Assembly (NCBI GenBank): GCA_011040095.1
Contig: DRDE01000314.1
Location: 1 to 43,991, forward strand
Length of the DNA stretch: 43,991 bases
DNA from: Nitrospirota bacterium
GTDB taxonomy: Bacteria > Nitrospirota > Thermodesulfovibrionia > UBA6902
Direction of reading: 5' to 3'
Positions 1 through 40,900 of the stretch are shown piece by piece. Positions within the stretch are counted from its first letter, which is position 1; each line of letters opens with the position of its first letter. A program made the translations under genes and the position numbers. The notes beneath the pieces were generated by a model. The model saw only the letters and a list, made by a program, of their open reading frames with translations. It searched no databases and was not told where the DNA came from.

Positions 1-2480
1 ATAATATGATCCTCTGTATCTATACCTTCAAATGTCAATTTGTATACAGCCCAGAATCCGCTTTTACCGAGGTAAGGCTCGATTTGAGAAACTTTATGCC
101 CGCCCTTTGTATAACATAATGTAATAGAATGAATACGTTCTGATGATTCGGTCTTTAAGTTGTTTATAATATCTTTCACCATTGGATGTCTGAGATGCAA
201 TCTCTCGGCGTCAATATCTTTATTGTGCCTGCCGACATAATAATATCCGCGGCTCATACTCTCTTTGCCCGAAATGCTGAATGATCCGGGCGCTGGATCA
301 ATCTTTAAGAGATAGCAGGCATTTGACAATTTGTATTCAGTCGGGCATAAGCTGCTTATTATTAATTTTGCAAGCATTATGTCCAAAGCACTCAAATCCT
401 GCTTTATTTTATTGTCAATTACTTTGAATCTTGCCCTGACCTCATCATCAAAGTTTTCAAGAAGCTTGGACCTTGTTTCTATTATTTTTTTATTGATCTG
501 TTCCGCAAGCTCTGCCTGGAGTTTATCGAATGCCTTATTGATTTCATCATCTGTGCGGCAGGACTGATATATGTCAAGAATGCGTTTCTCGAAATCAACG
601 CCCGAGCCTATAGAGCCAAGTATTTCATCCGAAGCGCCAAACAAGCCGCTGAAAAGTCTGAACTTCTGGTCAAGGAGTTCATATACCCTGCAGTCAGCGG
701 CAATTTTCCTGTTCAGGAAATTAAGAGCAATCACATCATATTTCTGCCCGTACCTATGGCATCGTCCTACTCTCTGCTCTATTCGCTGCGGGTTCCAGGG
801 GAGATCAAAATTTATAACAAGGTTGCAGAACTGAAGGTTAATGCCTTCTGCCCCGGCTTCAGTGGTAAGGAATATCCTGGTATGACGGTGAAATTCATGA
901 ATTAATGCGTCTCTGATCGCGACCGCCCTTGATATGTATCCTCCTGTTTCATGATGCGGTCTTTCTTTCACCCATCTGTCATAAGCCCTTTTGGCTGTTA
1001 CACCATTATTTGAGCCGTTAAAGACTGTTATCAACTCCTTATATCCATTGTCGGAAAGCAGATTGAAAAGATACTCCTGCGTCCTCCTTGACTCTGTAAA
1101 TATGACCGCTTTCTCATGCCATCCCATTTTCCTGCAGTGGGCAAAAGCCTTGTCCAGAGCAATAAGCAGTGCATCCCCCTTTGATGTCTTCTGAATGGAT
1201 TCGGCAAGGTTCCGCATATGAATCAATTCGCTTTTTTCAGCCTCCAGCTCTTCCTCTGTGAAAAATCTCCCGTTTGCGTTTTCAGTGTCTATATCTCCAG
1301 TTTCTACAGGTTCTGTATCCTCTCTTTTGGCGATTTCTTCGGATTCTTCTTCATAGCCGTCAACATCATCAAGCAATTCACTTATCTGAATGGTTTTTTG
1401 ATCGGATAACAACTTGTTAATATTGTTAATCAGCCCGTTAAGCGTTTTTGCAATCGCAAAACTTGAACTCGCAAGGATTTTCCAAAAAACCAATATTAAA
1501 AGGTGACGATATTTCGAGTTTATAGCTGCAACATCGGGCCTTCTCAAATACTCTGAAACAAGTTCATAAAGCTCGGCTTCATCATCAGTCGGCGTAAAAT
1601 CCTCTACCATTGACAAACGGTTTGTGTAGCGGACATATTCCTGAACCTGCCGCCTGAGAGTCCGCACCGCAATACCCGATATCCGTTCTTTTAAAGTCTC
1701 CTCATTTACAGACTCACGCCCGTTGTTGTCTGCCAGAAACATCTTTCTGAACGAATATTCAGAGCCAAAGGTCTTGTCTTCAATAAAACTCACCAGTCCA
1801 TACAGTTCCATCAGGGAATTTTGCAGCGGAGTTGCTGTCAGGAGAAGCTTGGGAATTCCGGCGAATAACTTTTTAAGCGTCCTGGCCTGCTTGCTGCCGG
1901 ACTTTTTATAAACATTCCTCAGGCGGTGCGCCTCATCTATTACCACCAGGTCCCATTTACCCACTGCCGCAATTTCAGCGCTTTTTGAATAAGCAAAGGG
2001 GATGGAAACAATAACGACTGCATTTCTTTTAAAGGGGTTTGTTTTTCCGTTTTTTTTAGACGCCCGATATTCGAATCCGTCAACTATAACACCCGGCACG
2101 TCAAACTTTTCGCGCAGCTCATTTTGCCACTGCTGACGTATGGGCGCCGGTACTACAGCGATAATCTTTCGTTTACCTTCCGCCCATAACTGGCTGATCA
2201 CCAGTCCCGCTTCAATAGTCTTTCCAAGGCCGACTTCATCGCAGAGTATTGCCCCGCGCGACATCGGAGATTTAAAGGCAAAGAGCGCCGCATCTACCTG
2301 ATGGGGATTCAGGTCAACCATTGCTGCTGAAAGAGGGGATTCCAGTTTCTTCAGATCATGCGCTGCCCGTTTGAGTGTGAGTTCATGGGCGGTTATGATT
2401 TGGTGGAAAAGGGGGAGTATCTTGAAATTATCACAATAATCGTCAAGTCCTTGGCGTGTACTGCCTGATGATTTCTTCAT
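1..2480 (-). CDS. SNF2-family (RapA/Rad54-like) helicase/ATPase, N-terminal >826 codons; ORF runs off the left edge of the window
   Basis: Absent from the ORF track because there is no stop inside the window. My own translation from the ATG at 2478-2480 stays open to position 1 (MKKSSGSTRQGLDDY...). Helicase motifs: I CDEVGLGKTIEAG, II VVIDEAHRLRN, III LLLTATPLQNSLMELY, V TTEAGAEGINLQ, VI DLPWNPQRIEQRVGRCHRYGQ. The short + strand ORFs at 331-1911 are its shadows. Confidence 0.85.
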   Translation of the reverse strand, partial: MKKSSGSTRQGLDDYCDNFKILPLFHQIITAHELTLKRAAHDLKKLESPLSAAMVDLNPHQVDAALFAFKSPMSRGAILCDEVGLGKTIEAGLVISQLWAEGKRKIIAVVPAPIRQQWQNELREKFDVPGVIVDGFEYRASKKNGKTNPFKRNAVVIVSIPFAYSKSAEIAAVGKWDLVVIDEAHRLRNVYKKSGSKQARTLKKLFAGIPKLLLTATPLQNSLMELYGLVSFIEDKTFGSEYSFRKMFLADNNGRESVNEETLKERISGIAVRTLRRQVQEYVRYTNRLSMVEDFTPTDDEAELYELVSEYLRRPDVAAINSKYRHLLILVFWKILASSSFAIAKTLNGLINNINKLLSDQKTIQISELLDDVDGYEEESEEIAKREDTEPVETGDIDTENANGRFFTEEELEAEKSELIHMRNLAESIQKTSKGDALLIALDKAFAHCRKMGWHEKAVIFTESRRTQEYLFNLLSDNGYKELITVFNGSNNGVTAKRAYDRWVKERPHHETGGYISRAVAIRDALIHEFHRHTRIFLTTEAGAEGINLQFCNLVINFDLPWNPQRIEQRVGRCHRYGQKYDVIALNFLNRKIAADCRVYELLDQKFRLFSGLFGASDEILGSIGSGVDFEKRILDIYQSCRTDDEINKAFDKLQAELAEQINKKIIETRSKLLENFDDEVRARFKVIDNKIKQDLSALDIMLAKLIISSLCPTEYKLSNACYLLKIDPAPGSFSISGKESMSRGYYYVGRHNKDIDAERLHLRHPMVKDIINNLKTESSERIHSITLCYTKGGHKVSQIEPYLGKSGFWAVYKLTFEGIDTEDHI

Positions 2481-2487
2481 GAGATAT

Positions 2488-4083
2488 TCACGCCCCGCTT
2501 TTTAGGTGATAGTTCTGTTTCATTATTAATATTTTTTCAAATAAATCCATGCACTTTTTATAGAGAAAAGAGTCTGTTGGGGTTATGCCTGTATCTGCTT
2601 GTAATTTATCCAAAGTTTCCTTCTGGGAATGACTTTCAATATTTTTCATTATTTCTGCTAAACCGATTCCGGCATATAGATACGGCTGGAGTTCTTCCAA
2701 CTCGTCTATAGATAAGATAATCCATGATGGGGAATTAATGTTATGCGTGTTATTAAGCAATTTATTTACATGCTTCTCAAACAAGAAAGAGTTTATGAGG
2801 TAAAACGACCCAAAAGAAACGAAAACAGATATGACTTTTGAACAATCATGAAATTCTTCAAGCCCTTTTGCCTTTGTAAGAATTGCATTTCTAAATTCAT
2901 GAAGTCCAACCAGCCCTTTTATAACCTGTTTTAAACTATTATTAATATCCTCTTCTGAGGCAGTTGTTAGAGCAACCCTTGAAAACTTTGTTGCCTTTAC
3001 TTGAAAAATAATGGCCGTATCCCCTTCGACTACAACCCAGTCAGGTAGTTTCCCTTTTTTGTATTTTCTCTTAATCATATCTTCAGAGTATATCTTGCAT
3101 CTATTTATTGAGTTTTCAAGAATTATCCCCACATACTCTTCAAATATAAGTCCGAACCATTGTGAAAACTCTTCTAAATAATTATTGAACATTTGATAAT
3201 AAATACCCGTTGATATTCTGTAGCATATAAGATTGGGAATGGGTGCAGTTAATCTGTCAGAATCCATTCCTAACAAGGGGCTGTCTTTCCATGGCCTTAT
3301 TATAGGATAGGAAAATAAAGGATTAAAATCGTATGCTCTGAATCGTCTGTCTCTGTTTTTGCGGTTTTCAAAAACTCCTCGGAACTGTGTAGGTGTGGCC
3401 GAAACATTATTTAAAATAGTTACGGTAGTGTCGTCATCAGGAAGTTTTAGCCCTTGTTGTCGGGCGACTTCAAAATAGCCTCTTGCAAATCCTGCTTTGC
3501 TTTGTGCGGCAGACCAGGCAACCAGTCCAATCGACAAAAAATCTTCAAGTGTTGCTCCGGTTATCTTTTGAAATTCAAAATGAAAATCAAACGCTGGGAC
3601 ATCTTTCCTTTTTTCAGCCCTTTTTATTGCTTCACCATAGAGAATCAGGGTTTGAGAGTAAGAAGCATAGGGATTGACGTTGTAGGAAAACTGGCTTGCT
3701 GAATGTCTCAGAGAAAGGAAGATCGGATTTTCTTCTTTGAATTTTTCAGCGAGTTCTTTATCAAAAGTAATTGGATCAGCTAACAGATAGTTTGTAACCA
3801 GCATTTCAAGCTGGGACAATGCATACAAGTCAAAGACCTTTCCATTTCTGTGAGGATTTGTAAAGCGAACAGCAAAAGAGGCGATACCAGCAGCAGTAAA
3901 AAATGGCAGACCCTTCGGAAGAAAGCGGTGGATATCAGAATTTGGATTTTCTAATTCTTTCAGTGCATTATTTACAGATATAAGAATATCATTTGATTTA
4001 AATTTTCTTATCTCATGTTTTATCCTGCTCTCAAGTTTATCTATATTTAGAGAGCCATTGCTATTAAAAAAAGTTTTATCCAA
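2488..4083 (-). CDS. Hypothetical 531-aa protein with a putative PD-(D/E)xK-like nuclease core (E...D...QxK)
   Basis: Long intact ORF. Its stop is 7 nt before the SNF2 start, and its start overlaps the PIN gene stop by 8 nt. Core pattern: FGLIFEEYVGIIL (helix with E), KLPDWVVVEG (D at a strand start), AIIFQVKATKF (QxK). The function is inferred from this pattern only. Confidence 0.6.
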   Translation of the reverse strand: MDKTFFNSNGSLNIDKLESRIKHEIRKFKSNDILISVNNALKELENPNSDIHRFLPKGLPFFTAAGIASFAVRFTNPHRNGKVFDLYALSQLEMLVTNYLLADPITFDKELAEKFKEENPIFLSLRHSASQFSYNVNPYASYSQTLILYGEAIKRAEKRKDVPAFDFHFEFQKITGATLEDFLSIGLVAWSAAQSKAGFARGYFEVARQQGLKLPDDDTTVTILNNVSATPTQFRGVFENRKNRDRRFRAYDFNPLFSYPIIRPWKDSPLLGMDSDRLTAPIPNLICYRISTGIYYQMFNNYLEEFSQWFGLIFEEYVGIILENSINRCKIYSEDMIKRKYKKGKLPDWVVVEGDTAIIFQVKATKFSRVALTTASEEDINNSLKQVIKGLVGLHEFRNAILTKAKGLEEFHDCSKVISVFVSFGSFYLINSFLFEKHVNKLLNNTHNINSPSWIILSIDELEELQPYLYAGIGLAEIMKNIESHSQKETLDKLQADTGITPTDSFLYKKCMDLFEKILIMKQNYHLKSGA

Positions 4084-4573
4084 TTTTTTTCAATCTCTTT
4101 AGAAACTCAATCAGAATTTCTTCTCTTATTCGATATCCCTTTTGCATTAAATCGAGTGATAATAATTCCGTAGTTTCCCGGTCAATCATACCGGACTTAA
4201 AAGAATCCCATAATATACCGAGAGTCCCCTTTGTTTTTAATCCCCTGAATCTGGCGACAGTCCTTGCTTTTGCTTCATCTATTAGAACTATGCCGATCTT
4301 ATTTCTGACAGCAAGACTTATAACAGCTCTTTCACCGGAGCCGAGAAAGTGCGGCAGGTTTTTTAAAAGAGGAGTTTTCACAGCCTCTATTTTTCTGCTA
4401 TCAAGATAGTGTATTATCTGTTGTGCATCTTCTTTTCGGAGCTTGAGACCTCTTGCAATTTCTGCTTCTACCTGTGATGGAACATAAAGTTTGAAATTAT
4501 CAAGAAGTTCGAGCCTGTTTATCTTTCCGAGAAATATCAGAGGGGAAGCATTGCAAACCACCCTATCAGGCAT
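4076..4573 (-). CDS. PIN-like DUF3368-family toxin, partner of the UPF0175 antitoxin
   Basis: The track ORF is 4076-4654. The likely true start is the internal ATG at 4571-4573 (MPDRVVCNASPLIFLGKINRLELL...), which overlaps the upstream stop as TAATG. Family-typical segments: NASPLIFL, GSGERAVISLA, VLIDEAKAR, KGTLGIL. Confidence 0.75.
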   Translation of the reverse strand: MPDRVVCNASPLIFLGKINRLELLDNFKLYVPSQVEAEIARGLKLRKEDAQQIIHYLDSRKIEAVKTPLLKNLPHFLGSGERAVISLAVRNKIGIVLIDEAKARTVARFRGLKTKGTLGILWDSFKSGMIDRETTELLSLDLMQKGYRIREEILIEFLKRLKKIG

Positions 4574-4854
4574 TATCTTATATCCTCTGCAAGCTCTTCC
4601 ATTGAATAGTCTATATGTATGTCCGCTTTCTTTATTTTCTCTATCATCTCCCATATGTCTATTGAAAGCATTCCAGCGGCTTTCTGAAGGGTTATCTTCC
4701 GGCTTCTGTAAAGTTGAAGGACATTTTTTTCATTTAAAACGAGAAGTCCCTGTTTTAACGCCTTTGGTATGATGTCCTGGACTTTTACACCATATGTTTT
4801 AGAGACTCGTTCAGCTTCTTTGTATAAATTTTCTTTTAGTTTTACAGACTTCAT
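4573..4854 (-). CDS. UPF0175-family antitoxin
   Basis: 93-aa ORF. The C-terminal LQLYRSRKITLQKAAGMLSIDIWEMIEKIKKADIHIDYSMEELAEDI matches the usual UPF0175 pattern (LY..g.iSlgkAAe....s..ef...l.k.gi......eel.eDl). It is coupled to the DUF3368 gene. Confidence 0.75.
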   Translation of the reverse strand: MKSVKLKENLYKEAERVSKTYGVKVQDIIPKALKQGLLVLNEKNVLQLYRSRKITLQKAAGMLSIDIWEMIEKIKKADIHIDYSMEELAEDIR

Positions 4855-4866
4855 TTTATCCCTCCA

Positions 4867-5118
4867 TTAATTGAGCTTCTTCTCGAAGCCAATCATTTCG
4901 TTTTCAGGCACTGCGTTTATTACATAGCCGCATTCTGAAAGATAATCATCAAGTGTCCCCATTTCTTTCATCTCGGCAAACTGTATTTTTACCACCTCAT
5001 CAAGGTTGGCTTTTGCCTCTTCAATAGTCCGCCCCTGAGCAATAAAATCCAGTTCAGGGATTTTGGCTATACACCATTCCCCTTTCTGCCATAACTCAAT
5101 CGTTGATTGTAATTTCAT
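4867..5118 (-). CDS. HicB-like (UPF0150) antitoxin-fold protein, with no adjacent HicA
   Basis: 83 aa. ELWQKGEWCIAKIPELDFIAQGRTIEEAKANLDEVVKIQFAEM fits the HicB N-terminal fold pattern (..g.w.A.vPel.g..tqG.TleEA..nl.eai). Confidence 0.65.
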   Translation of the reverse strand: MKLQSTIELWQKGEWCIAKIPELDFIAQGRTIEEAKANLDEVVKIQFAEMKEMGTLDDYLSECGYVINAVPENEMIGFEKKLN

Positions 5119-5181
5119 TTAAACCTCCCGACAGTTTTCCATTATGGCCGTTATCAAGCGCTTATTAATTATATCAAAGAG

Positions 5182-8100
5182 TTATGAATCTATCATTTCT
5201 CCGTTTTCGTTGTTGTCTAAATCACTTTGGACGAATGTATCCTTATATTTTTCAAAACCTGTACCCGCAGGGATTAACCGCCCCATAATGACATTTTCTT
5301 TTAATCCCTTCAGGTGATCAACATCTCCTTCAATAGCCGCCTCTGTTAATATCCTGGTTGTCTCTTGAAATGACGCTGCTGATATCCAGCTATTTGCTGA
5401 CAAAGCTGCTTTAGTGATTCCAAGCAACACTGGCTGACCAACTGCCTCTTTTCCACCATCTAATGAAACAACGACATTTTCTTCGAGAAATTTACGTCTT
5501 TCTGTAATTTCTCCCATCAGAAACATAGTGTCGCCTGGAGCTGTGATCTTTATTTTTTCAGTCATTTTTCTGATGATAATTTCAAAATGCTTATCATTAA
5601 TTTTGATATTATTCGCTTTATACGTTTTTTGAAGTTCGTTCAGGAGAAATAAATGAACTTCTCTTCCCCCTTTATCGTTAAGTATTTTATGTGGGTCTAT
5701 CAAAGTTTTGTCTTTCGGCCTTCTTGCCTCAAAAAGTTCGATAATTCTGAATAAATCAATGACGGGCATTTCATCTTCTGTCTCACATCTGCCTGATCTG
5801 CGGCTGTTCAAAACAAACTGTGTTCCGGGTTCTCCTATTGACTGGGCTGCCAGGATTCCGACAGCCGTGCCTGTTTCAACTGTCCTGCCGGTTGATAAGT
5901 CCCGACCATAACATCTTGCGCATACGCCGTTTTCGGAAAGGCATGTAAGAACAGACCTTGCTCTCACCTTTTTAATGCCGGCATCGGTTATTCGTCTGGC
6001 AACGCTATTAGTAATTTCTTCGTTTAATCCCAGTATAACTTCCCCTGTTTCAGGATTCCGTATCTCCTCGGCCGATATGCGTCCTGTTATTCTGTCATCA
6101 AGCTTATGAATAATTTTTTTATTTACAACTATTTCATCTAATGTAATTCCGTCTCCTGTGGCGCAGTCTTCTTTTTGAATAATAGTGTCCTGTACCACAT
6201 CTATAAGCCTTCTTGTTAACCATCCGGCATTTGCAGTCATCATCTCTGTATCAATAATACTGTTTCTCGCTCCGGTAGATAACATAAAATATTGAACAGG
6301 TGAAAGACCTTCCTTAAAATTTGCCGTAATAGGATACTCCATAAACTTTTCCGAAGGCTTCACTATATGTCCCGGCACCATTCCGGCAAGCCTTATTAAC
6401 AGGGCAGCAGAGTTTTTTGCGCCTGAGTTGATCATCATATGAATGTTGTTCCCTTTGTCCTTCTTAAGTTCTGTCACTATTTCATTGTTTATAATTCCGG
6501 CAGCTTTTTGCCAAGTCTCTGTAACAGCATCTCTTCGCTCTTCAGTGGAAATGGTTTCATCATCTTCACTTTCATTTGCATTTATGAACCCGTATACATG
6601 CTTCTGGGCATCTTCAACTACCGCCTGTTTACATGAGGGTACACGTATATCATCCATGCTTATAGATATGCCCGATCTTGTGGCATACTCAAATCCGATC
6701 CTCATGAGACGGTCAAGGACTTCGGCTGTGTCCTGTCTGCCGAAATCGTTATGCAGGAGCATCACAATTTCTTCAAGACAGTTTTGTGTCACTGTCCGGT
6801 TTACTTTTTCAAAAGGGAACCCGCATGGGAATATATCATACAAAATGACCTTGCCTGCGGTAGTATCATGAAGACTCTCCTGTATTCTAACTTTTATCTT
6901 TGAGTGCTCATTTATAAATCCTGAATCATAAGCGTGTCTTACTTCATCGGCGCTGGAAAATACGGATGGGCAGGTCTCAGCGTCAGGCATATCAGCCGTT
7001 AAATAATAGATACCGAGAAGCATGTCCTGTGTCGGCATTGCGGCAGGTTTGCCGTTTGCAGGGTTTAAAATAGTGTTAACAGACATCATCAGCGCCCTTG
7101 CCTCTACCTGCGCCTCTATTGATAAAGGAACATGGACAGCCATCTGGTCACCGTCAAAGTCAGCATTGAATCCCTTGCATACAAGCGGGTGCAGCTTTAT
7201 CGCCTTACCCTCAACAAGTACCGGGTCAAATGCCTGCATTCCGAGACAGTGAAGAGTCGGCATTCTGTTAAGAAGCACAGGATGTTCCCTGATGACTTCA
7301 TCAAGGCAGTCCCAAATGATATCCTCTCCACGTTCAACGACTTTCTTGGCAGCTTTGATCGTGGTGACAAATCCTTTTTCTTCAAGTTTGCTGAATATGT
7401 AAGGTTTAAACATTTCAATGGCCATTTTCTTCGGCAATCCACACTGATGAAGCCGTAGTGCCGGGTCCGGCACGATGACGGACCTGCCGGAGTAGTCAAC
7501 TCTTTTACCGAGAAGGTTCTGCCTGAAGCGGCCCTCTTTACCCTTTATCATGTCGCTTAAGGACTTAAGCGGCCTCTTGGTTACTGCCTTTAGTACACGG
7601 CTCCTCCTCCCGTTGTCAAAGAGTGCGTCAACAGCTTCCTGGAGCATCCTTTTTTCATTTCTGATAATGACACTGGGGGCATTCAGTGCCATCAGTCTTT
7701 TCAAGCTGATATTTCTATTTATAACCCGTCTATAAAGATCGTTTAAATCTGAAGTGGCAAACCGTCCGCCTTCAAGCGGTACCAACGGTCGAAGGTCAGG
7801 TGGCAACACGGGAATAACGTCCATAACCATCCACTCCGGTCTGTTCCCTGATCGTCTGAATGCCTCCACAACTTTTAATCTCTTTGCAAGTTTTTCTTTC
7901 GTGGTTTTGGCATTTGTCTGTCGTATCTTTGCTCTAATGTCTTTTGCCAGAGTATCAAGGTTAATCTTTTGCAGGAGTACTTTTACCGCTTCAGCGCCAA
8001 TACCTGCCTTGAATTTATCGCCGAACTCCTGGACCCTTTTTCTGTATTCCTCACCTGTCAGAAGTTCTTTTTCTTTTAACTTTGTTTCACCGGGGTCAAC

Positions 8101-8538
8101 GACTATATAACTTTCAAAGTAAAGCACCGTTTCAAGCTGGCGCATGGTCATGTCAAGCAGTGTACCGATAATATTTTGACGACCTTTCCAGTACCATATA
8201 TGGGCAACAGGTGTGCACAGCTCTATGTGACCGAGCCTTTCACGTCTTGCCTTTGCCTGTATGACCTCAACCCCGCATTTGTCACAGACAACCCCCCTGT
8301 GTTTCATTCTCTTATATTTGCCGCATATGCATTCCCAGTCTTTGACAGGACCAAATATTTTTGCACAGAAGAGCCCATCACGTTCAGGCTTGAAAGTTCT
8401 ATAGTTTATGGTTTCCGGATTTTTTACTTCTCCATAAGACCATTCCCTTATTTTTTCAGGAGAGGCGAGGCTTATCTTAACCGCATTAAATGTCGTTAGA
8501 TTTTTGGGCTTTTCAAATATTGAGTAGATATCTTCCAT
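5182..8538 (-). CDS. rpoC: RNA polymerase beta-prime subunit paralog: orphan (no rpoB adjacent) and divergent in the trigger loop, F-loop, bridge helix and jaw
   Basis: 1118-aa ORF. N-terminus FNAVKISLASPEKIREWSYGEVKNPETINYRTFKPERDGLFCAKIFGP; Zn ribbon CICGKYKRMKHRGVVCDKCGVEV; catalytic NADFDGDQMAVHVPLS; C-terminal FQETTRILTEAAIEG...KENVIMGRLIPAGTG. Divergences are listed in the findings. Confidence 0.9.
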   Translation of the reverse strand: MEDIYSIFEKPKNLTTFNAVKISLASPEKIREWSYGEVKNPETINYRTFKPERDGLFCAKIFGPVKDWECICGKYKRMKHRGVVCDKCGVEVIQAKARRERLGHIELCTPVAHIWYWKGRQNIIGTLLDMTMRQLETVLYFESYIVVDPGETKLKEKELLTGEEYRKRVQEFGDKFKAGIGAEAVKVLLQKINLDTLAKDIRAKIRQTNAKTTKEKLAKRLKVVEAFRRSGNRPEWMVMDVIPVLPPDLRPLVPLEGGRFATSDLNDLYRRVINRNISLKRLMALNAPSVIIRNEKRMLQEAVDALFDNGRRSRVLKAVTKRPLKSLSDMIKGKEGRFRQNLLGKRVDYSGRSVIVPDPALRLHQCGLPKKMAIEMFKPYIFSKLEEKGFVTTIKAAKKVVERGEDIIWDCLDEVIREHPVLLNRMPTLHCLGMQAFDPVLVEGKAIKLHPLVCKGFNADFDGDQMAVHVPLSIEAQVEARALMMSVNTILNPANGKPAAMPTQDMLLGIYYLTADMPDAETCPSVFSSADEVRHAYDSGFINEHSKIKVRIQESLHDTTAGKVILYDIFPCGFPFEKVNRTVTQNCLEEIVMLLHNDFGRQDTAEVLDRLMRIGFEYATRSGISISMDDIRVPSCKQAVVEDAQKHVYGFINANESEDDETISTEERRDAVTETWQKAAGIINNEIVTELKKDKGNNIHMMINSGAKNSAALLIRLAGMVPGHIVKPSEKFMEYPITANFKEGLSPVQYFMLSTGARNSIIDTEMMTANAGWLTRRLIDVVQDTIIQKEDCATGDGITLDEIVVNKKIIHKLDDRITGRISAEEIRNPETGEVILGLNEEITNSVARRITDAGIKKVRARSVLTCLSENGVCARCYGRDLSTGRTVETGTAVGILAAQSIGEPGTQFVLNSRRSGRCETEDEMPVIDLFRIIELFEARRPKDKTLIDPHKILNDKGGREVHLFLLNELQKTYKANNIKINDKHFEIIIRKMTEKIKITAPGDTMFLMGEITERRKFLEENVVVSLDGGKEAVGQPVLLGITKAALSANSWISAASFQETTRILTEAAIEGDVDHLKGLKENVIMGRLIPAGTGFEKYKDTFVQSDLDNNENGEMIDS

Positions 8539-8705
8539 TAATCATCCCCTTATTTGCAAGTATCCAGATTTTAACATAAAGAAGGTAATAGAAAGGAAGA
8601 AAAAGCTTTACATCCAGAGTTCCAATTTGCCTTGATTGTGTAACATATTGTATGTTTTCTTGAAGAGTACATAACAAGACTAAAGATATTTGGATTGCAA
8701 AACTT

Positions 8706-10331
8706 ATGAAGATCAACAATGCAAAAGACATTCATAAATATGTTGAGGCCCTTATTAACAACATGCCTTTGTTTAAAATGCCAAGATATGAAGCATTACT
8801 CCACGTCCTGCGAACGATGGAGGCGCTTTTTACACGTGGAAGTATATCTGAACGCTCGGAAGCAAATCTTATTATGGCTAACAGGGCTTTCCAGGATATA
8901 CTTCGTTATATGGTTTATTGGACTTACAGTATATGTCCTGAAGGAGGCAAGATTTTGTCAACGCCAGCTAACTGTAAAGAGATGATTAAAGAAACAATCG
9001 AGATTGCAGAAAGTTACAGTAAAGTTTTTGACTTTATAAAAGCGGAAGAAATGGGAGATGTGTCATTTAATATTAATAAGCACTCCAAAATTATAGGAAT
9101 TGAGTACTTGAATGAAGAAGCGGGTAGATCGTTTGGTCTTCATGAATTTTTTAAGGGGAAAGAGTTAGGTAATCAATCTAAAAATTTCTTTGGCAATGAA
9201 TCCGGAAACATGGAAAATATGTTAAAAGCTAAGGAAGAAATCGAAAAATCTATTAAAATCAAGAATAAGAAAGAATTCATTTATTCGCGAAGTAAGTTTG
9301 TTTTTAAGACATTTGAGGAATTATCTGAAAATATTATTTCACAGATGTTTTTGATGCCTGAAGGATGGTCATTGGGGTTTTATACAATTGGCAATTTTAA
9401 ACTTTTCTGGAAGCATCTCTTGAAAATCGCAATAATTCATCAAGTAGCCTTCATAAGTTATGTAGAGAAAATGATTAAAGGTAATAAAAACATATCATAT
9501 GATAATGCTGTACGCTGCGACAATAAAAAAGATTTAGTTAATCATATTCATATGTATTCCGGGCTGGAGAAAAAAGTTATTAATAACATCATACAAGACT
9601 TGATTTATGATAATGCAGTGAAATGGACTGATATCATGTTTCAGCCGCTTTTTCAAATTGAAAATAAAATTATTTTTTCTCCAAACGTAATTGTTGGGAG
9701 TAGAGCAGAGAGAAATATTAATGTCTTAATGAGTAAAATTAATCCAACAGCATATAATGATCTAACATCTAATAAAGAAGATGGGATGATTTCTGAATTC
9801 AGTAACACTTTGAGAGAGAACAGATATTTTTTCGAACCAAGAGTAAAACTAAAAGAGGATGATAAAGTTATTACAGACATAGATATTCTTGTGTGGGACG
9901 AGAAAAAAGAAAACATCTTATTAATGCAATTAAAGTGGCTTTATGGTGCTGATGCGACTCAGGAAATTTACAATCAAGATAAAGAATTTGCAGCAGGAAT
10001 TGCTCAAGTAAAAAAGTCTGTGAATTTTATTAAGAGAAATTCTTCATATCTATCAAGATTTGGACTACGCCCTAATAACGTTTTCGGTATTGTTATTAGT
10101 AAGCTTGGTCTTCCAAGCCCTTTTCTAAATAAAGAAAATGTCATATTGGTTGAATCCGAGCAAATAATAGAAAATCTTAAGGCTGTTCCCGGCAATATAA
10201 AAAAACTATATACCTTCCTCGAACAATCTTCATTACCCAAAAAGGAAATAGCTGAATGCACATTGAATGTTAAGGAAAAAATAATCGGTCAATACACTTT
10301 CCGATTACCTGTTGTTTCATGCAAGGTTTGA
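8706..10331 (+). CDS. Hypothetical 541-aa protein with a putative PD-(D/E)xK-like nuclease core; distant paralog of the 531-aa protein
   Basis: Long intact, very AT-rich ORF divergent from the rpoC paralog. Core pattern: GMISEFSNTL (E), VITDIDILVWD (D), ILLMQLKWLYG (QxK). It shares FxPLF and post-core motifs with ORF 2488-4083. Confidence 0.6.
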   Translation: MKINNAKDIHKYVEALINNMPLFKMPRYEALLHVLRTMEALFTRGSISERSEANLIMANRAFQDILRYMVYWTYSICPEGGKILSTPANCKEMIKETIEIAESYSKVFDFIKAEEMGDVSFNINKHSKIIGIEYLNEEAGRSFGLHEFFKGKELGNQSKNFFGNESGNMENMLKAKEEIEKSIKIKNKKEFIYSRSKFVFKTFEELSENIISQMFLMPEGWSLGFYTIGNFKLFWKHLLKIAIIHQVAFISYVEKMIKGNKNISYDNAVRCDNKKDLVNHIHMYSGLEKKVINNIIQDLIYDNAVKWTDIMFQPLFQIENKIIFSPNVIVGSRAERNINVLMSKINPTAYNDLTSNKEDGMISEFSNTLRENRYFFEPRVKLKEDDKVITDIDILVWDEKKENILLMQLKWLYGADATQEIYNQDKEFAAGIAQVKKSVNFIKRNSSYLSRFGLRPNNVFGIVISKLGLPSPFLNKENVILVESEQIIENLKAVPGNIKKLYTFLEQSSLPKKEIAECTLNVKEKIIGQYTFRLPVVSCKV

Positions 10332-10391
10332 ATTAATTTGTAAAATTATATAATATTCCCCCAAAACTGGAGGGAGTAATAAGGTGGAAAC

Positions 10392-10637
10392 TTAGCCTGT
10401 CAAAACCCGAAGGAGGAAAGACAGGATGAAAAACATACGAAATATAGTGCATAAGGCAAAGGGATCAGGATTGATTTTGGGGAGATCTATGGGGAGTTTT
10501 ATTTTACCCTTTACAGCCCGTTTGGCGCCGGGGCAGATCAAGACATGATGAGAGCCTTGTTTCCGTTTATATTTGCAGCCGTATAGCTCAAATATCTTTA
10601 ACTGTATTTTCCAGTCCGTAGGGAATATTCTCGGCAT
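10392..10637 (-). CDS. HicA-like toxin with an atypical, possibly degenerate C-terminal half
   Basis: The N-terminal KIFELYGCKYKRKQGSHHVLICPGAKR matches the HicA/YcfA pattern (..L...Gf...rqkGSHhvl..pg..r). The remainder (KGKIKLPIDLPKINPDPFALC...) does not look like HicA. The ATG directly abuts the TAA of the HicB relic. Confidence 0.45.
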   Translation of the reverse strand: MPRIFPTDWKIQLKIFELYGCKYKRKQGSHHVLICPGAKRAVKGKIKLPIDLPKINPDPFALCTIFRMFFILSFLLRVLTG

Positions 10638-10905
10638 TTACGCAACCTGAACCAATTTCTTCTCGAACCCGATCATTTCGTTTTCAGGCACTGCGGTATC
10701 GTCTTTAATTACATAACCGCATTCTGAAAGATAATCATCAAGTCCCCATCTCTTTCATCTCGGCAAACTGTATCTTTACCACCTCATTAAGATTAGCTTT
10801 TGCCTCATCAATAGTCCGCCCCTGAGCAACAAAATCCAGTTCCGGAATTTTGGCTATGCACCATTTCCCCTTTTGCCATAACTCAATAGTTGCCTGTAAT
10901 TTCAT
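10638..10905 (-). pseudogene. Frameshifted second copy of the HicB-like gene
   Basis: Nucleotide-level copy of 4867-5118. It has a 2-nt deletion (catcaag--tcccca versus catcaagtgtcccca) that creates ...AEMKEMGT-stop, and a 9-nt in-frame insertion near the 3' end. Confidence 0.7.
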
Positions 10906-10981
10906 TATAAGCCTCCTTAAATTTATATATTCTGATTATACAAAAATTATCGAGCGCGTCACTCTTTCTTTTTGCCATACA

Positions 10982-11348
10982 CTATACGATATCCTCTGAA
11001 AGGTCTTCCATTGAATAGTCTATATGTATATCAGCTTTCTTTATTGCGTAGCCCGGGTTTAATACCCCGCCCCTTGGGGCGTTCATTGCTTTTAAAGATA
11101 CCCCGTCCGCTTGCGGCGGGGTAGTTCATTTTATCTATCATCTCCCATATGTCTATCGAAAGCATTTCAGCGGCTTTTTGAAGGGTTATCTTCCGGCTTC
11201 TGTAAAGTTGAAGGACATTTTTTTCATTTAAAACGAGAAGTCCCTGTTTTAACGCCTTTGGTATGATGTCCTGGACTTTTACACCATATGTTTTAGAGAC
11301 TCGTTCAGCTTCTTTGTATAAATTTTCTTTTAGTTTTACAGACTTCAT
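10982..11348 (-). pseudogene. Second copy of the UPF0175 antitoxin gene, interrupted by an 85-bp palindromic element; no PIN partner
   Basis: The first 60 codons are identical to 4573-4854 and only 2 of the first 73 differ. The track ORF 11031-11348 reads through into the insert. After the insert the original frame resumes (KKADIHIDYSMEDLSEDIV-stop at 10982-10984). Confidence 0.75.
11046..11130. repeat. REP/MITE-like insertion made of two GC-rich hairpin units
   Basis: Present in copy 2 of the UPF0175 gene and absent from copy 1 at the homologous point (ctttatt|ttctctatcatc). Units: ataccccgccccttggggcgttcatt and ataccccgtccgcttgcggcggggtagttcatt. Confidence 0.65.
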
Positions 11349-11431
11349 TTTATCCCTCCCGATGGAATAAAAGATGAGGTTTTAGGAGAAGAGAGAGGGA
11401 GTTCAGATAGGCGCTTATCCGATTAGCTTTT

Positions 11432-11707
11432 TTATACTACTTTAACTTTTAATTGTCTTCCAAGGGCTTGAGCAAATTTCTCTAATGTTGATAGACGAAT
11501 ATCTTCAGAGTGATTTTCAATTCTGGAAATTGCAGACTTCTTTGTACGCAGTTTTTTTGCTAATTCTTCTTGTGTGATTCCTGCCTTTTCTCTTGCCATC
11601 TTAAGGGTCACTCCTATTTTAAAATCTTGATATCCAGCTTCAAAATCCTTTGTAAATTTCCGGCTTTTCTTTTTCCGTTTACTTATGTATTTTTCAAGAT
11701 CATCCAT
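11432..11707 (-). CDS. XRE-family HTH antitoxin (HigA-like), partner of the Gp49/RelE-type toxin
   Basis: 91 aa. MAREKAGITQEELAKKLRTKKSAISRIENHSEDIRLSTLEKFAQALG is a classic Cro/C1-type HTH. Confidence 0.8.
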   Translation of the reverse strand: MDDLEKYISKRKKKSRKFTKDFEAGYQDFKIGVTLKMAREKAGITQEELAKKLRTKKSAISRIENHSEDIRLSTLEKFAQALGRQLKVKVV

Positions 11708-11754
11708 TATTTTTCCTCCTGTTTATATAATCACGCTTTCGTATTTCCGCAAGC

Positions 11755-12057
11755 TCAATTTCTTTTTTTTGGTGTTTTCCGAGACTTCTTTTGAAATCCA
11801 TGTGTTAGAATAATTAAATTAGCCCCATCATTAAAACCGAGAAACCTGTAGATATTATTTCCAACCTGCACTCTAACCTCCCAAATGCCATCTGTATTAA
11901 TCAGTTTCTTAAAATATGACCTTGGAACATCATCAAAATCTCTTATTATTCGTAACACCCATGCAACTTTTTTTACTATTTTGTCAGGCAAAGTATCCAG
12001 GAAATTTTCAACAGGACACTTGCCGGATACCGTTTTATAAAATACAATTTTACGCAT
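11755..12057 (-). CDS. Gp49-like (DUF891) RelE/HigB-superfamily toxin; C-terminus apparently truncated by a frameshift in an A8 run
   Basis: [43 protein letters not shown] fits the family pattern (lwElR......yRil.f.....ivllhgF.KKtqktPkk). With one fewer A, the -1 frame continues as [20 protein letters not shown] and ends in an ATGGATGA overlap with the antitoxin start. Confidence 0.75.
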
Positions 12058-12061
12058 TTAT

Positions 12062-12091
12062 AATGTTAACACTAATGTGAACATTTATCAA
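12062..12091 (-). promoter_or_regulatory. Possible promoter/operator of the Gp49-XRE cassette
   Basis: On the minus strand: TTGATA (12091-12086), a 17-nt spacer, TAACAT (12068-12063), then ATG 5 nt later. No SD is visible, so the mRNA may be leaderless. An inverted repeat aatgttaac-N6-gtgaacatt (12062-12085) overlaps the spacer and -10. Confidence 0.3.
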
Positions 12092-12126
12092 GGGAAAATA
12101 TTTTGAAAGATAAGGATATCTATTCG

Positions 12127-12285
12127 ATAATGGCCGTTATCAAGCGCTTATTAATTATATCAAAGAGTTATAAATCTATCATTTCTCCGTTTTCGTTGTT
12201 GTCTGAATCGCTTTGAACGAATGTATCCTTATATTTCTCAAAACCTGTACCCGCAGGGATCAACCGCATATGTCCCGGCACCATT
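12127..12285 (-). pseudogene. Deletion remnant of a second copy of the rpoC paralog (3' end plus downstream spacer)
   Basis: 12127-12267 is a near-identical copy (a few mismatches) of 5141-5281. It is followed directly by 18 nt (12268-12285) identical to 6365-6382. The junction is in frame: MVPGHM-RLIPAGTGFEKYKDTFVQSDSDNNENGEMIDL-stop. Confidence 0.8.
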
Positions 12286-13938: not shown

Positions 13939-14055
13939 GTAACTATTCAGGCAGGCACAAAGGCACAAAGTGAAAAAAAGAATGAAAAAGTTTTCTTGTA
14001 TTTCTGTAACCCTTTGTGCCTATGTGCCTTTGCCACTTTGCACCTGAGTAGTTAC
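13939..14055. mobile_element. MITE family A, copy 1 (117 bp, 13-bp terminal inverted repeats)
   Basis: gtaactattcagg...cctgagtagttac. The interior is a long imperfect palindrome rich in ggcacaaag units. A reverse-oriented copy lies at 40792-40900. Confidence 0.8.
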
Positions 14056-16918: not shown

Positions 16919-17160
16919 CTCTGAAACCGCAGGGCAAATTTACTATTGTTGTATTTCAGGACTCCTTTACACTCCTTTTTCAAATTTCTTTAAAAAAGGC
17001 TAAAGTTTTTTCCGTAAAGAATCGATATGAATTTATATCATGTCAGAAGAGCAGGGCTTGATTAATTATATGTTTTCAAAACATAGACAAAATATTGTTG
17101 AGAACTTTAATTATTACCTACTAATATTCTCATAGGTAATATACCAAGAGAGGCGTGACT

Positions 17161-19251
17161 ATGAGAAAAGGCGGAAGTATCAAAACAAAATTTACTTTTA
17201 TCCTCATCGGGGTTATGTCTTTAGCTGTCACTGCGGTTTTTATATACCATATATATACCCAGATATTTGTAGCCGGCAGGGAATTAGCGGCAGCTATGAT
17301 ATATGAACAGCGCATGACCGTAACAATGGAGGCCCCAAAGGTGCGGAATATTTTAATTGCAAGGGATATCGATAAACTAAACTCTTTTGTCCGGAAAATA
17401 AGGGAATCCTCGCCCGGTGAATTTGCAATAATATACAGTAGTATCAGGGATTCACAAGGCGCAATACTTGCTCATTCTTTTGATGGCCCTATGCCGGATG
17501 CATTAAGAGATATAGGCATCATGAAGGCGGATGTCATGAAGACGGATGTCATGAAGACGGATGCCATGAAGACGGATGCCATGAAGACGGATGCCATGAA
17601 GACGGATGCCATGAAGACGGATGTCATGAAGACGGATGTCATGAAGACGGATGTCATGAAGACGGATGTCATGAAGACGGATGCCATGAAGACGGATGTC
17701 ATGAAGACGGATGCTATGAAGACGGATGTCAGGAAGGCGGAAGTCATGAAGACGGATGCTATGGGAATGGGTGACATGAAGATGGGTGATATGGAAAATG
17801 TTAAAATGCAAGTAAAGAAAGTTGTAGTTGAGCCATATGGGGAAATACTGAATATCAGCCATCAGATAGGAACATATGGAACTCTTACCGTGGGCTTCCA
17901 GGGATATGATCCGATGGTTATATTGAAAAAAGAGGGTTTGAATTTCCTGATTATTTATTTTATTTGCATCTCTCTTGGAATCTTAATCTCCTTGGTCCTT
18001 TCAGCAAGAATGATGGCTCCATTACAGCCTATCATGGAAGGTATAAAAGAAATCGGCAGTGGGAGATTCGTTGAAATATCCGTTACATCATCAGATGAGC
18101 TTGGTGAGATAGCAATGGTGTTTAACGAAACAGCGAGTAAATTAAGGGGTTACATCCAGACTGATGAAGAGAGGAAAATGACTCAGGAGAATGTTATCAA
18201 CTTCCTGAAAGTTGTCAGTGATGCTTCAGAAGGAGATTTCAGCAGTCGGGCTCCGGTTACCGTTGATGTCTTTGGCTCAATAGCAGATGCATATAACCTG
18301 ATGATGGACGAACTTTCATCGCTCTTAATAGATGTTAAGTCCACTGCCCAGGGAGTTGGAGAGGATAGTCTCAAAACCCTTGAAATACTTAAGAAGATGT
18401 CAGAGGATGCTGAGACGCAGATGGTGCAGATGAAAGATGCTGCGGATGCAATTAATGAGGCTGCAGAGGCTACCGCAACGACTACAGAAAAGACCAAGGA
18501 TGCAACAGAGTTATCTATTAAGGCTGTTGATGCCTCTCAAAAGGGTGAACAACTTGTTGCTCAGAGTATTGAGGGTATGCAGCTTATAAGGGCTTCAGTG
18601 CAGATAATTAATAAAAAGATGAAAATGTTTTCAGAGAAGGTTTTAGAGATCGGCACAATCTCGGGTATGATTGCAGATATTTCTTCAAGGACGAATCTTC
18701 TGTCAATGAATGCCTCCATTGAGGCGGCAAGGGCAGGAGAGGCAGGCAAAGGTTTTGTTGTTATTGCCGAGGAGATCAGAAGCCTGGCAGACAAGTCCGC
18801 TGAGGCTACCAGGGATATAACGGGTATTATCCGTTCGATTCAAACCGAGGCAGGTGAAATAACCGGCTCACTTGAAGAAGAGACGGAAATAGTTGAAAAA
18901 CAATCAGGCCTGGCCTCAGAGACTAAATTTTCTTTTGCCGAGATTACAAGCGCTATTGATAAATCAAAAAGTATTGTTGCAGAAATATTGCCTTTATCGC
19001 AGACACAGAAAAAGATGACCGACAATGTTGTTCTTTCGATGAAAGAAGTCAACCGCATCTCCCTCGAACTCCTGAAACTGATTCGGGAATCTGAAGACAT
19101 GGCTGAAAAGTTCTCTGATTCATCCAAGGAACTGCTTTCATCTGTTGAGAAATTCAAATTATCAGAACCCGGGGAATTAAAAACTGTTGAACCGGTCCCT
19201 GGAAAGTTGAACCCTTCATGGTCGGAAACCGAGAAGGAGATGACTGCATAG
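17161..19251 (+). CDS. Methyl-accepting chemotaxis protein (2 TM, periplasmic domain with a Met-rich pentapeptide repeat, HAMP, MA domain)
   Basis: Signalling hairpin [40 protein letters not shown]1 [19 protein letters not shown]2 [18 protein letters not shown] followed by HAMP. The track ORF starts at GTG 17155; ATG 17161 has better SD spacing (agagagg). Confidence 0.9.
17521..17805 (+). repeat. 15-bp in-frame tandem repeat, 16 near-identical units plus about 3 degenerate units
   Basis: The unit atgaagacggatgYc is repeated head to tail from 17521 to 17760, then degenerates (atgggaatgggtgac, atgaagatgggtgat, atggaaaatgttaaa). It encodes (MKTD[V/A])n. Confidence 0.95.
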
Positions 19252-40791: not shown

Positions 40792-40900
40792 GTAACTACT
40801 CAGGTACAAAGTGGCAAAGGCACATAGGCACTTAGGGTTACAGAAATACAAGAAAAGTTTTTCATTCTTTTTTTCACTTTGTGCCTACCTGAATAGTTAC
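40792..40900. mobile_element. MITE family A, copy 2 (opposite orientation to copy 1)
   Basis: The reverse complement aligns along its length with 13939-14055, including both termini (gtaactactcagg...cctgaatagttac). Confidence 0.8.

Follow-up and report, generated by a model that had tools for sequence, protein, structure and literature searches.

The stretch of DNA analysed here, referred to as the window, comprises the 43,991 nucleotides of contig DRDE01000314.1 (assembly GCA_011040095.1) of a Nitrospirota bacterium, and carries a gene for an rpoC-like β′ protein that is bracketed by two open reading frames, here named A and B. The original prediction described both frames, at 2488-4083 on the minus strand (531 amino acids) and at 8706-10331 on the plus strand (541 amino acids), which our analysis confirmed, and took their products for distant paralogs of one nuclease-like family that belongs with the β′ paralog. 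According to our results, both proteins are modelled with a PD-(D/E)xK nuclease fold; A and B share only this catalytic fold of the superfamily and come from separate families. We consider it likely that each is the product of its own gene and represents the sensor-plus-nuclease type of protein that is carried as cargo in defence islands. The locus is built as follows:

2488 to 4083, minus strand: protein A, 531 amino acids; open reading frame present, with a predicted all-helical N-terminal domain (about residues 1-250) and a predicted C-terminal PD-(D/E)xK domain.
2815 to 3174, minus strand: nuclease core of A, residues 304-423, placed by predicted secondary structure, family conservation and fold matches.
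8706 to 10331, plus strand: protein B, 541 amino acids; open reading frame present, with a predicted helical N-terminal region and a predicted C-terminal PD-(D/E)xK domain.
9744 to 10100, plus strand: nuclease core of B, residues 347-465, placed by predicted secondary structure and family conservation.
3 to 2480, minus strand: SNF2 helicase of the DrmD (DISARM) type; open frame of 826 codons, incomplete at the left end of the window.
4573 to 4854, minus strand: UPF0175 antitoxin (Pfam UPF0175, E = 1.3e-11).
4076 to about 4573, minus strand: DUF3368/PIN-like toxin (Pfam DUF3368, E = 3.3e-4, under threshold).
5182 to 8538, minus strand: β′ (rpoC-like) gene, 1118 amino acids (Pfam Rpb1 domains 1-5; NCBIfam rpoC_TIGR).
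10742 to 12267, no strand assigned: scrambled second copies of the sequence downstream of rpoC, found as repeats by self-comparison.

A is co-directional with the β′ gene and lies downstream of it, the UPF0175 and DUF3368/PIN-like genes being placed between the two, and B is divergent and lies upstream. The start codon of A is overlapped by the stop codon of the DUF3368/PIN-like toxin gene, and the SNF2 frame begins 7 nucleotides past the stop codon of A; SNF2 and A are probably in one operon.

A word-indexed search returned 92 homologues of A, mostly of about 500-530 amino acids and with a patchy phyletic spread, mainly in Cyanobacteria, Nitrospirota, Acidobacteriota and Desulfobacterota; conservation in the family was counted in a 49-sequence alignment that includes the window copy. 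A matches the NCBIfam model NF047931 of GapS1 over residues 166-466 (E = 4.4e-27, 95.1 bits), and the same model is matched by all 49 aligned relatives at E <= 1e-3, with a best E of 9e-36, while no Pfam family reaches threshold for A. Judged by these profile matches, A is a distant relative or sister of GapS1, homologous to it and placed outside the curated family, so that family A would form a separate, deeper branch. GAPS1, a single-protein anti-phage system, comes from a mobile island of Vibrio; it needs its PD-(D/E)xK domain for defence, which is lost upon the substitutions D313A and K328A, mutants of T7 that escape it are changed in the capsid protein, and activation of the system leads to dormancy (bioRxiv 10.1101/2023.03.28.534373). 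The homology to GapS1 (Vibrio parahaemolyticus WP_005477165.1) extends over approximately 300 residues and takes in the nuclease domain together with a portion of the helical region, and the spacing of 15 between D348 and K363 of A equals that of D313 and K328 in GAPS1. Both are of one size class, with 455 positions in the GapS1 model and about 510-530 amino acids in family A, whose genes are mostly solitary and whose patchy distribution fits horizontal transfer. In contrast to GapS1, family A occurs mainly in the four phyla named above and not in Gammaproteobacteria, the window copy has Gln for the Glu of ExK, and A is paired with a DrmD-like SNF2 helicase in the lineage of the window. One source gives an A relative the label NERD (Pfam PF08378), which we rejected: two of the 49 members match that model, at best with E = 0.012, and the window copy gives no match at E <= 1.

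The motif of family A is PD...ExK, with P347 in 45 of 49 sequences, D348 and K363 in all of them and Glu at position 361 in 48, and the Glu of the preceding helix, E315, is kept in 43. The window copy is the sole member with Gln at 361. It further has Val at C362, Gly at Q393 (Gln in 48 of 49) and Gly at E425 (Glu in 46 of 49), i.e., four near-invariant positions are altered in or just past the ExK strand region. Since only 6 of 76 highly conserved columns are changed (family median 3; rank 8 of 49), the alignment describes a protein that is not generally decayed and appears changed specifically around the catalytic strands. With E361Q, Q393G and E425G, the window copy is probably catalytically weakened or repurposed. 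The AlphaFold2 model of A is confident (predicted local distance difference test, pLDDT, 91.9; predicted template-modelling score, pTM, 0.91) and mostly helical in its N-terminal half. Its core consists of a helix at 304-325 with E315, a strand at 330-333, a strand at 349-353 preceded by P347-D348, a strand at 356-363 with Q361-V-K363, a helix at 377-402 and a strand at 416-423. Foldseek comparison with the PDB gives Nt.BspD6I and its small subunit (probability 0.99) and FokI (0.96), and further matches are Can2, McrC, the R2 RLE domain, Hjc, Bax1 and Mus81. The structural E-values of A are weak, 4.5e-3 at best, because the C-terminal domain alone matches.

For B, word-indexed homologue searches with the single sequence and with a profile returned B alone, and an exhaustive HMMER search found 781 representative clusters, defined at 50% identity, at E <= 1e-3, 340 of them at E <= 1e-10 and mostly over the full length. 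The relatives have 530-600 amino acids. No family in Pfam or NCBIfam reaches threshold for B, and its 63 aligned relatives, in which conservation was counted, match only SEC-C/SWIM models, through an N-terminal extension that roughly one in four of them carries. P314, D393 and K410 are invariant (63/63), and Q313, E335-R336-N337, E358 (60/63), D391 (60/63), W411 and E420 are nearly so. Position 408 varies, with Glu in 33, Gln in 14 and Ser in 14 of the 63 members, and all nearest relatives of B have Gln or Ser there. The window copy keeps 13 of 13 conserved family positions. Its AlphaFold2 model (pLDDT 94.6, pTM 0.93) is again mostly helical in the N-terminal half, and the core comprises a helix at 347-371 with E358, strands at 375-384, at 387-397 with D391-I-D393 and at 403-410 with Q408-L-K410, a helix at 418-444 with E420 and Q434, and a strand at 458-465. 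An N-terminal zinc-binding motif of the SEC-C/SWIM type was observed in 15 of the 63 aligned relatives (e.g., L015:10001-11806, P0096), and window B is without it.

The top structural match of B in the PDB is 9wuf, the anti-phage nuclease Upx, with E = 1.2e-5, probability 1.00 and 590 aligned columns, at a template-modelling score of 0.38 normalised to B. Upx of Salmonella enterica (SeUpx) is a single protein of 1272 amino acids whose C-terminal domain, residues 715-1272, holds the catalytic D1161, E1176 and K1178, and the double mutant E1176A/K1178A served as an inactivated control that gives no protection (PMC13099982). The substitution E1176A alone abolishes defence (PMC13099982, PMC13601566), and the N-terminal region senses phage large terminases (PMC13601566). 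The whole B model aligns to Upx, and the 541 amino acids of B come near the size of the Upx C-terminal domain (approximately 560 residues). D393, Q408 and K410 of B align with D1161, E1176 and K1178, the Glu position being Gln in window B, and the family profile 'DiDLliwd..lelKWl' is aligned to Upx 1149-1194, 'GDIDLLAWR..VIECKDL'. Unlike in Upx, where E1176 is essential, position 408 in family B accepts Glu, Gln or Ser, and about a quarter of the B relatives differ from Upx by the N-terminal SEC-C zinc motif. B is a member of a large family without annotation, and its model resembles Upx, most probably the C-terminal domain of that protein.

The PD-(D/E)xK fold proposed earlier for both proteins was thus borne out at the level of structure prediction: the confident models place an α-β-β-β-α-β core at the residues expected, every member of either alignment keeps the Asp and the Lys, and PD-(D/E)xK nucleases dominate the structural matches. 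We therefore assign this fold to A and B on the basis of the models, the nuclease activity itself being predicted. At the family level, both have an acidic residue on strand 2, (D/E)xK on strand 3 and the Glu of the first helix, and the window copies of both have Gln at the (D/E) position. After Upx, the next structural matches of B are the R2 RLE domain, Bax1, Can2, NucS, XisH, MunI, Shedu and DdmD, and a fold search against viral models in BFVD gave core-level nuclease matches only. FokI/BspD6I-type domains, Hjc, Can2, McrC, the R2 RLE domain and Bax1, which are the top matches of A and secondary matches of B, have the same αβββαβ core and arrangement of two acidic residues and Lys; they differ in that the core of about 120-150 residues alone matches (E >= 4.5e-3), with no common recognition domains and no adjacent methyltransferase. 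Sub-threshold Pfam matches of both families are solely models of the PD-(D/E)xK clan (DUF234, NERD, Hjc, HSDR_N_2 and SduA_C). Searches of PDB sequences with the profiles of A and B gave nothing significant.

BLASTP between A and B finds nothing (best E = 8), and full-length comparison of the two profiles by hhalign picks out the catalytic region with a probability of 2.4% and E = 0.02. When the C-terminal halves are compared by greedy hhalign, 190 columns align with a score of 28.0 (P = 0.0023, probability 12.5%), E315 here also pairing with E358. This score exceeds all controls, i.e., mismatched halves (10.9-17.3), reversed alignments (18.6-20.5) and 100 block-shuffled alignments (mean 15.5 ± 2.4, maximum 22.7), none of which reaches 28.0. 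Starting about 50 residues ahead of the core helix and ending with the fourth strand, helices and strands also succeed one another in the same order in the two models. For the N-terminal halves, the score is 17.3 and thus at the control level. By these alignments, the colinear similarity is real but weak and limited to the nuclease half, as would be expected between different families of one fold superfamily. Most of the motif pairings of the original prediction recur in the best profile-profile alignment, which pairs D348 of A with D393 of B, Q361 with Q408, K363 with K410, APIPNLI with FSPNVIV and the strand KVISVFVSF with NVFGIVISK. The spacings are those given earlier: A has 13 residues between Asp and Gln and 15 between Asp and Lys, and B has 15 and 17, respectively. 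Other pairings are shifted. The conserved helix Glu of B is E358, while the motif originally chosen holds E364 (35 of 63); G390/Q393 of A, where the window copy has Gly at 393, are aligned with G431/Q434 of B, and not Q386 with Q434; and FNPLF and FQPLF are not aligned.

The claim of paralogs within one family did not hold. The GapS1 model matches all 49 A relatives and none of the 63 B relatives, Upx is the top structural match of B and is absent from the top 50 matches of A, the N-terminal halves are unlike, and profile-profile similarity over most of the length stays insignificant at probabilities of 2-12%. The shared glutamine variant fares no better, even though QxK stands in both window copies: the Gln is a lone case among 49 sequences in which ExK is otherwise kept, and it is one of three residues found at position 408 in family B. 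As far as the two alignments tell, Gln at the (D/E) position is a one-off in the family of A and a tolerated subfamily state in that of B, and no shared hallmark.

The gene neighbourhoods likewise separate the two families from the β′ gene. The two nearest relatives of A (61% and 55% identity), one of them from a Nitrospirae metagenome-assembled genome, sit in the order rplK-rplA-rplJ-rplL-rpoB-rpoC-UPF0175-(DUF3368/PIN)-A-SNF2, which the window matches from rpoC onward. Near A, rpoC was found only in L007/L008 and L009; in L009, a UPF0175 and PIN pair lies between rpoC and A, and in L007, UPF0175 is found there. In about 20 other A loci, for which flanks of up to 10 kb were examined, rpoC, SNF2 and toxin-antitoxin genes like those of the window are absent, and neighbour clustering of 23 family-A loci gave no family-wide partner. 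A relatives adjoin an MmeI-type restriction-modification gene, a transposase, NERD-UvrD, an integrase, a VapB antitoxin and ABC/AbiEii-like ATPases, and some are carried on cyanobacterial plasmids. B is next to the β′ gene on every contig of the population of the window that reaches that far, and it adjoins this gene only in that population, which comprises seven near-identical contigs; 11 independent B loci contain no rpoC, SNF2 or A. Its relatives have as neighbours PIN toxin-antitoxin pairs, Fic, DUF5677, UvrD, a caspase-like peptidase, a SIR2-like gene, integrases and a Type ISP restriction-modification gene, and a plasmid search for family B found none. Neither family is generally linked to rpoC, and the idea that they belong with the β′ paralog could not be upheld, rpoC adjoining A only in its two or three nearest relatives. 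Of about 11 independent loci of family B, three have DUF5677 beside the B gene or in its vicinity (L014:611-2101, L051:2798-4120 and L015:16654-17535), and window B has none next to it; DUF5677 proteins may be a partner of family B.

The SNF2 gene next to A matches the NCBIfam model DISARM_DrmD_b over about 650 residues with E = 1.6e-196 and 655 bits (up to 661), and DrmD of PADLOC with E = 1e-195. It resembles the DrmD of DISARM in these matches (E about 1e-196) and differs from it in that it remains under the equivalog cut-off (655-661 against 950 bits) and is solitary, without DISARM partners. It follows A likewise in L009 and in L007, where it is split into 155 and 693 amino acids. An identity as RapA, which would make rpoC and SNF2 a housekeeping pair, was rejected because the DrmD-type models score about four times higher than the RapA model, which gives 166 bits only. 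A DISARM system was rejected as well, the flanks of L009 being without drmA, drmB, drmC or a methylase and carrying a tRNA synthetase, a peptidase and a P-type ATPase. This adjacent DrmD-like helicase may be a working partner of A.

The DNA around B bears the marks of rearrangement. The sequence just downstream of rpoC, 4571-5281, recurs scrambled at 10742-12267 in four families of direct repeats, whose first and second copies together enclose rpoC and B:

10742 to 10906, repeat of 4955 to 5119, 90% identity.
10980 to 11045, repeat of 4571 to 4636, 88% identity.
11125 to 11359, repeat of 4631 to 4865, 98% identity, 235 nucleotides.
12123 to 12267, repeat of 5137 to 5281, 94% identity, 145 nucleotides, holding the last approximately 100 nucleotides of the rpoC reading frame.

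In contigs L002 and L003, which are strain variants, the sequence is joined differently across these repeats. Contig L003 is the exact product of recombination across the 235-nucleotide repeat (L003:2571-2805), with window 8555-11359 joined to 4631-7770, which could be explained by a tandem duplication of 6494 bp, by a circle or by a chimeric assembly. In L002 (5893-6549), a diverged second 3' end of rpoC, 88.8% identical to window 5231-5472, lies to the right of B. Since B is located between the repeats and the contigs show variant joins, it sits in rearrangement-prone accessory DNA, which fits cargo and not a partner of β′. The 145-nucleotide remnant of the rpoC 3' end adjoins Rieske/cytochrome b genes. 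Toxin-antitoxin-type genes are densely packed at 4076-5118 and 10392-12057, both on the minus strand, where they include a HicB/UPF0150-like gene for 83 amino acids, two UPF0175 genes, a DUF3368/PIN-like gene and a helix-turn-helix/Gp49 (HigA/HigB-like) pair at 11432-12057.

The β′ gene itself scores 1468 bits with rpoC_TIGR, above the cut-off of 963.5 bits. Its product is 55% identical to the β′ of L007 and from 50% (C-terminal part) to 72% (N-terminal part) identical to that of L009; the three proteins are mutually 50-58% identical, and the L007 and L009 genes both follow rpoB. The trigger loop of the window β′ is divergent (residues about 895-945), reading 'GEPGTQFVLNSRRSG' against 'GEPGTQLTMRTFHQGG' in mycobacterial β′, with Asn and Arg at the conserved Arg and His positions, and the protein is without about 70 residues after 'ELFEAR'. 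The trigger loops of the β′ proteins at L007:5869-9567 and L009:5416-9072 are also divergent, with the His kept; these two have an insertion of about 100 amino acids after residue 404, which the window β′ is without, and the L007 protein reads NADFDGDTMA. Elsewhere in the window, the reading frame at 17155-19251, chemoreceptor-like with HAMP/MCP-signal, contains a tandem repeat with a period of 15 nucleotides (five codons) at 17519-17793 on the plus strand, with self-matches at multiples of 15 nucleotides, and a 95-nucleotide inverted repeat of about 96% identity joins 13961-14055 and 40792-40886, 27 kb apart. Contig NODE_443 (L001), 99.989% identical to the window, begins at window position 1709, so that the window reaches 1.7 kb beyond this public contig on the left and stems from a different record. 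A scan for promoters and terminators gave a number of sites not above that in shuffled sequence.

By analogy, we hypothesize that A and B are defence-type effectors in which the helical N-terminal part would keep a Mg2+-dependent nuclease inactive until a phage-derived cue or a partner protein frees it; the freed nuclease would then cut nucleic acid and bring about growth arrest or abortive infection. A belongs to a small islet downstream of rpoC in a Nitrospirota-type lineage, made up of UPF0175/PIN toxin-antitoxin genes, A and the DrmD-like SNF2 gene, and B to the rearrangement-prone stretch upstream of rpoC, at whose borders toxin-antitoxin genes and the 3' end of rpoC are repeated. With A and B in such accessory surroundings, their position beside rpoC would reflect where accessory genes accumulate and not a function in common with β′.

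Several points weigh against this explanation. The score of A lies far below the curated GapS1 cut-off of 320 bits, and neither A nor B matches a PADLOC family at threshold, the presence of an Upx model in PADLOC 2.0 being unchecked. Without the canonical Glu, window A may not be a working nuclease. The sequence similarity of B to Upx is marginal, the B profile matching the 9wuf sequence with E = 0.06 as a whole and with E = 0.2 in the catalytic stretch, and B is without the N-terminal sensor (1-515) and the middle domain (516-714) of Upx. No member of either family was found in the viral contigs searched. The order of rpoC, toxin-antitoxin genes, A and SNF2 is kept in three genomes at only 55-65% protein identity, which could mean that the linkage to rpoC is under selection and has not simply been inherited. 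Finally, while fold, residue conservation, family relationships and gene neighbourhoods are matters of observation, we infer the defence role and the effect of the substitutions in A, and the trigger and the substrate entirely so.

In another explanation, A would be the nuclease partner of the DrmD-like SNF2 helicase in a two-gene module, a split analogue of the ZorD-type SNF2-nuclease fusions, which would have been kept beside rpoBC because it acts on transcription complexes or senses phage interference with RNA polymerase. The 7 nucleotides between A and SNF2 would suit such a module, as would their adjacency in the three genomes at 54-65% protein identity, always after rpoC and a UPF0175 gene, the divergent trigger loops of β′ in all three and the weaker similarity of SNF2 to RapA, an ATPase associated with RNA polymerase. 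However, the helicase scores far better as DrmD than as RapA, about 20 other A loci have no SNF2 or any other conserved neighbour, synteny in three genomes of one lineage can be explained by descent alone, and window A has lost its catalytic Glu. We regard this module as unlikely, with some room left for it.

A role outside defence appears more doubtful still. In that case, A would be what is left of a degenerating gene, and B would be a selfish nuclease of toxin-like character, maintained through addiction or through hitch-hiking with the toxin-antitoxin cassettes around it. The four changes near the ExK strand of window A could be read as decay, the locus is full of toxin-antitoxin genes, repeats and variant joins, and B relatives are often found beside toxin-antitoxin genes, Fic and integrases. 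On the other hand, A is of full length with few conserved positions changed, B keeps all of its own, and the large size of both families, together with conservation along the entire protein, points to selection; moreover, the nearest characterised relatives of A and B are defence proteins. The original view of one Gln-variant family functionally tied to the β′ paralog is largely refuted by the profile, structure and neighbourhood comparisons. The C-terminal similarity above controls, the like order of secondary-structure elements, the QxK of both window copies and the constant adjacency of B and β′ in one population speak for this view, which is nevertheless highly improbable.

A bolder combination of these elements would hold that rpoC, the UPF0175/PIN genes, the GapS1-like nuclease and the DrmD-like SNF2 form a retained functional unit in a Nitrospirota-type lineage with divergent β′ trigger loops, the helicase-nuclease pair surveying RNA polymerase or transcription complexes or acting on them, that window A, through E361Q, Q393G and E425G, no longer cuts and has become a subunit for binding or sensing, and that family B is a widespread, unrecognised stand-alone defence protein of the type of the Upx C-terminal domain, possibly working with DUF5677. 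Taken jointly, we give these proposals a slim chance.

These results do away with the attractive yet unsupported account of a nuclease family dedicated to the β′ paralog; in the simpler account that replaces it, two different defence-type nucleases lie in accessory DNA around rpoC. What is new here, and of moderate novelty, is a deep branch of the GapS1 lineage and a family without annotation that resembles a stand-alone Upx C-terminal domain. Family A extends the GapS1 lineage well past Gammaproteobacteria, and a single lineage pairs it with a DrmD-like helicase that is itself solitary; this pairing and the natural Glu-to-Gln variant of the active site are directly testable. Family B, with at least 781 clusters, no model in Pfam, NCBIfam or PADLOC and a confidently predicted Upx-like fold, is a candidate for a new single-gene defence family and could reveal how the nuclease module of Upx behaves when the terminase-sensing N-terminus is absent.

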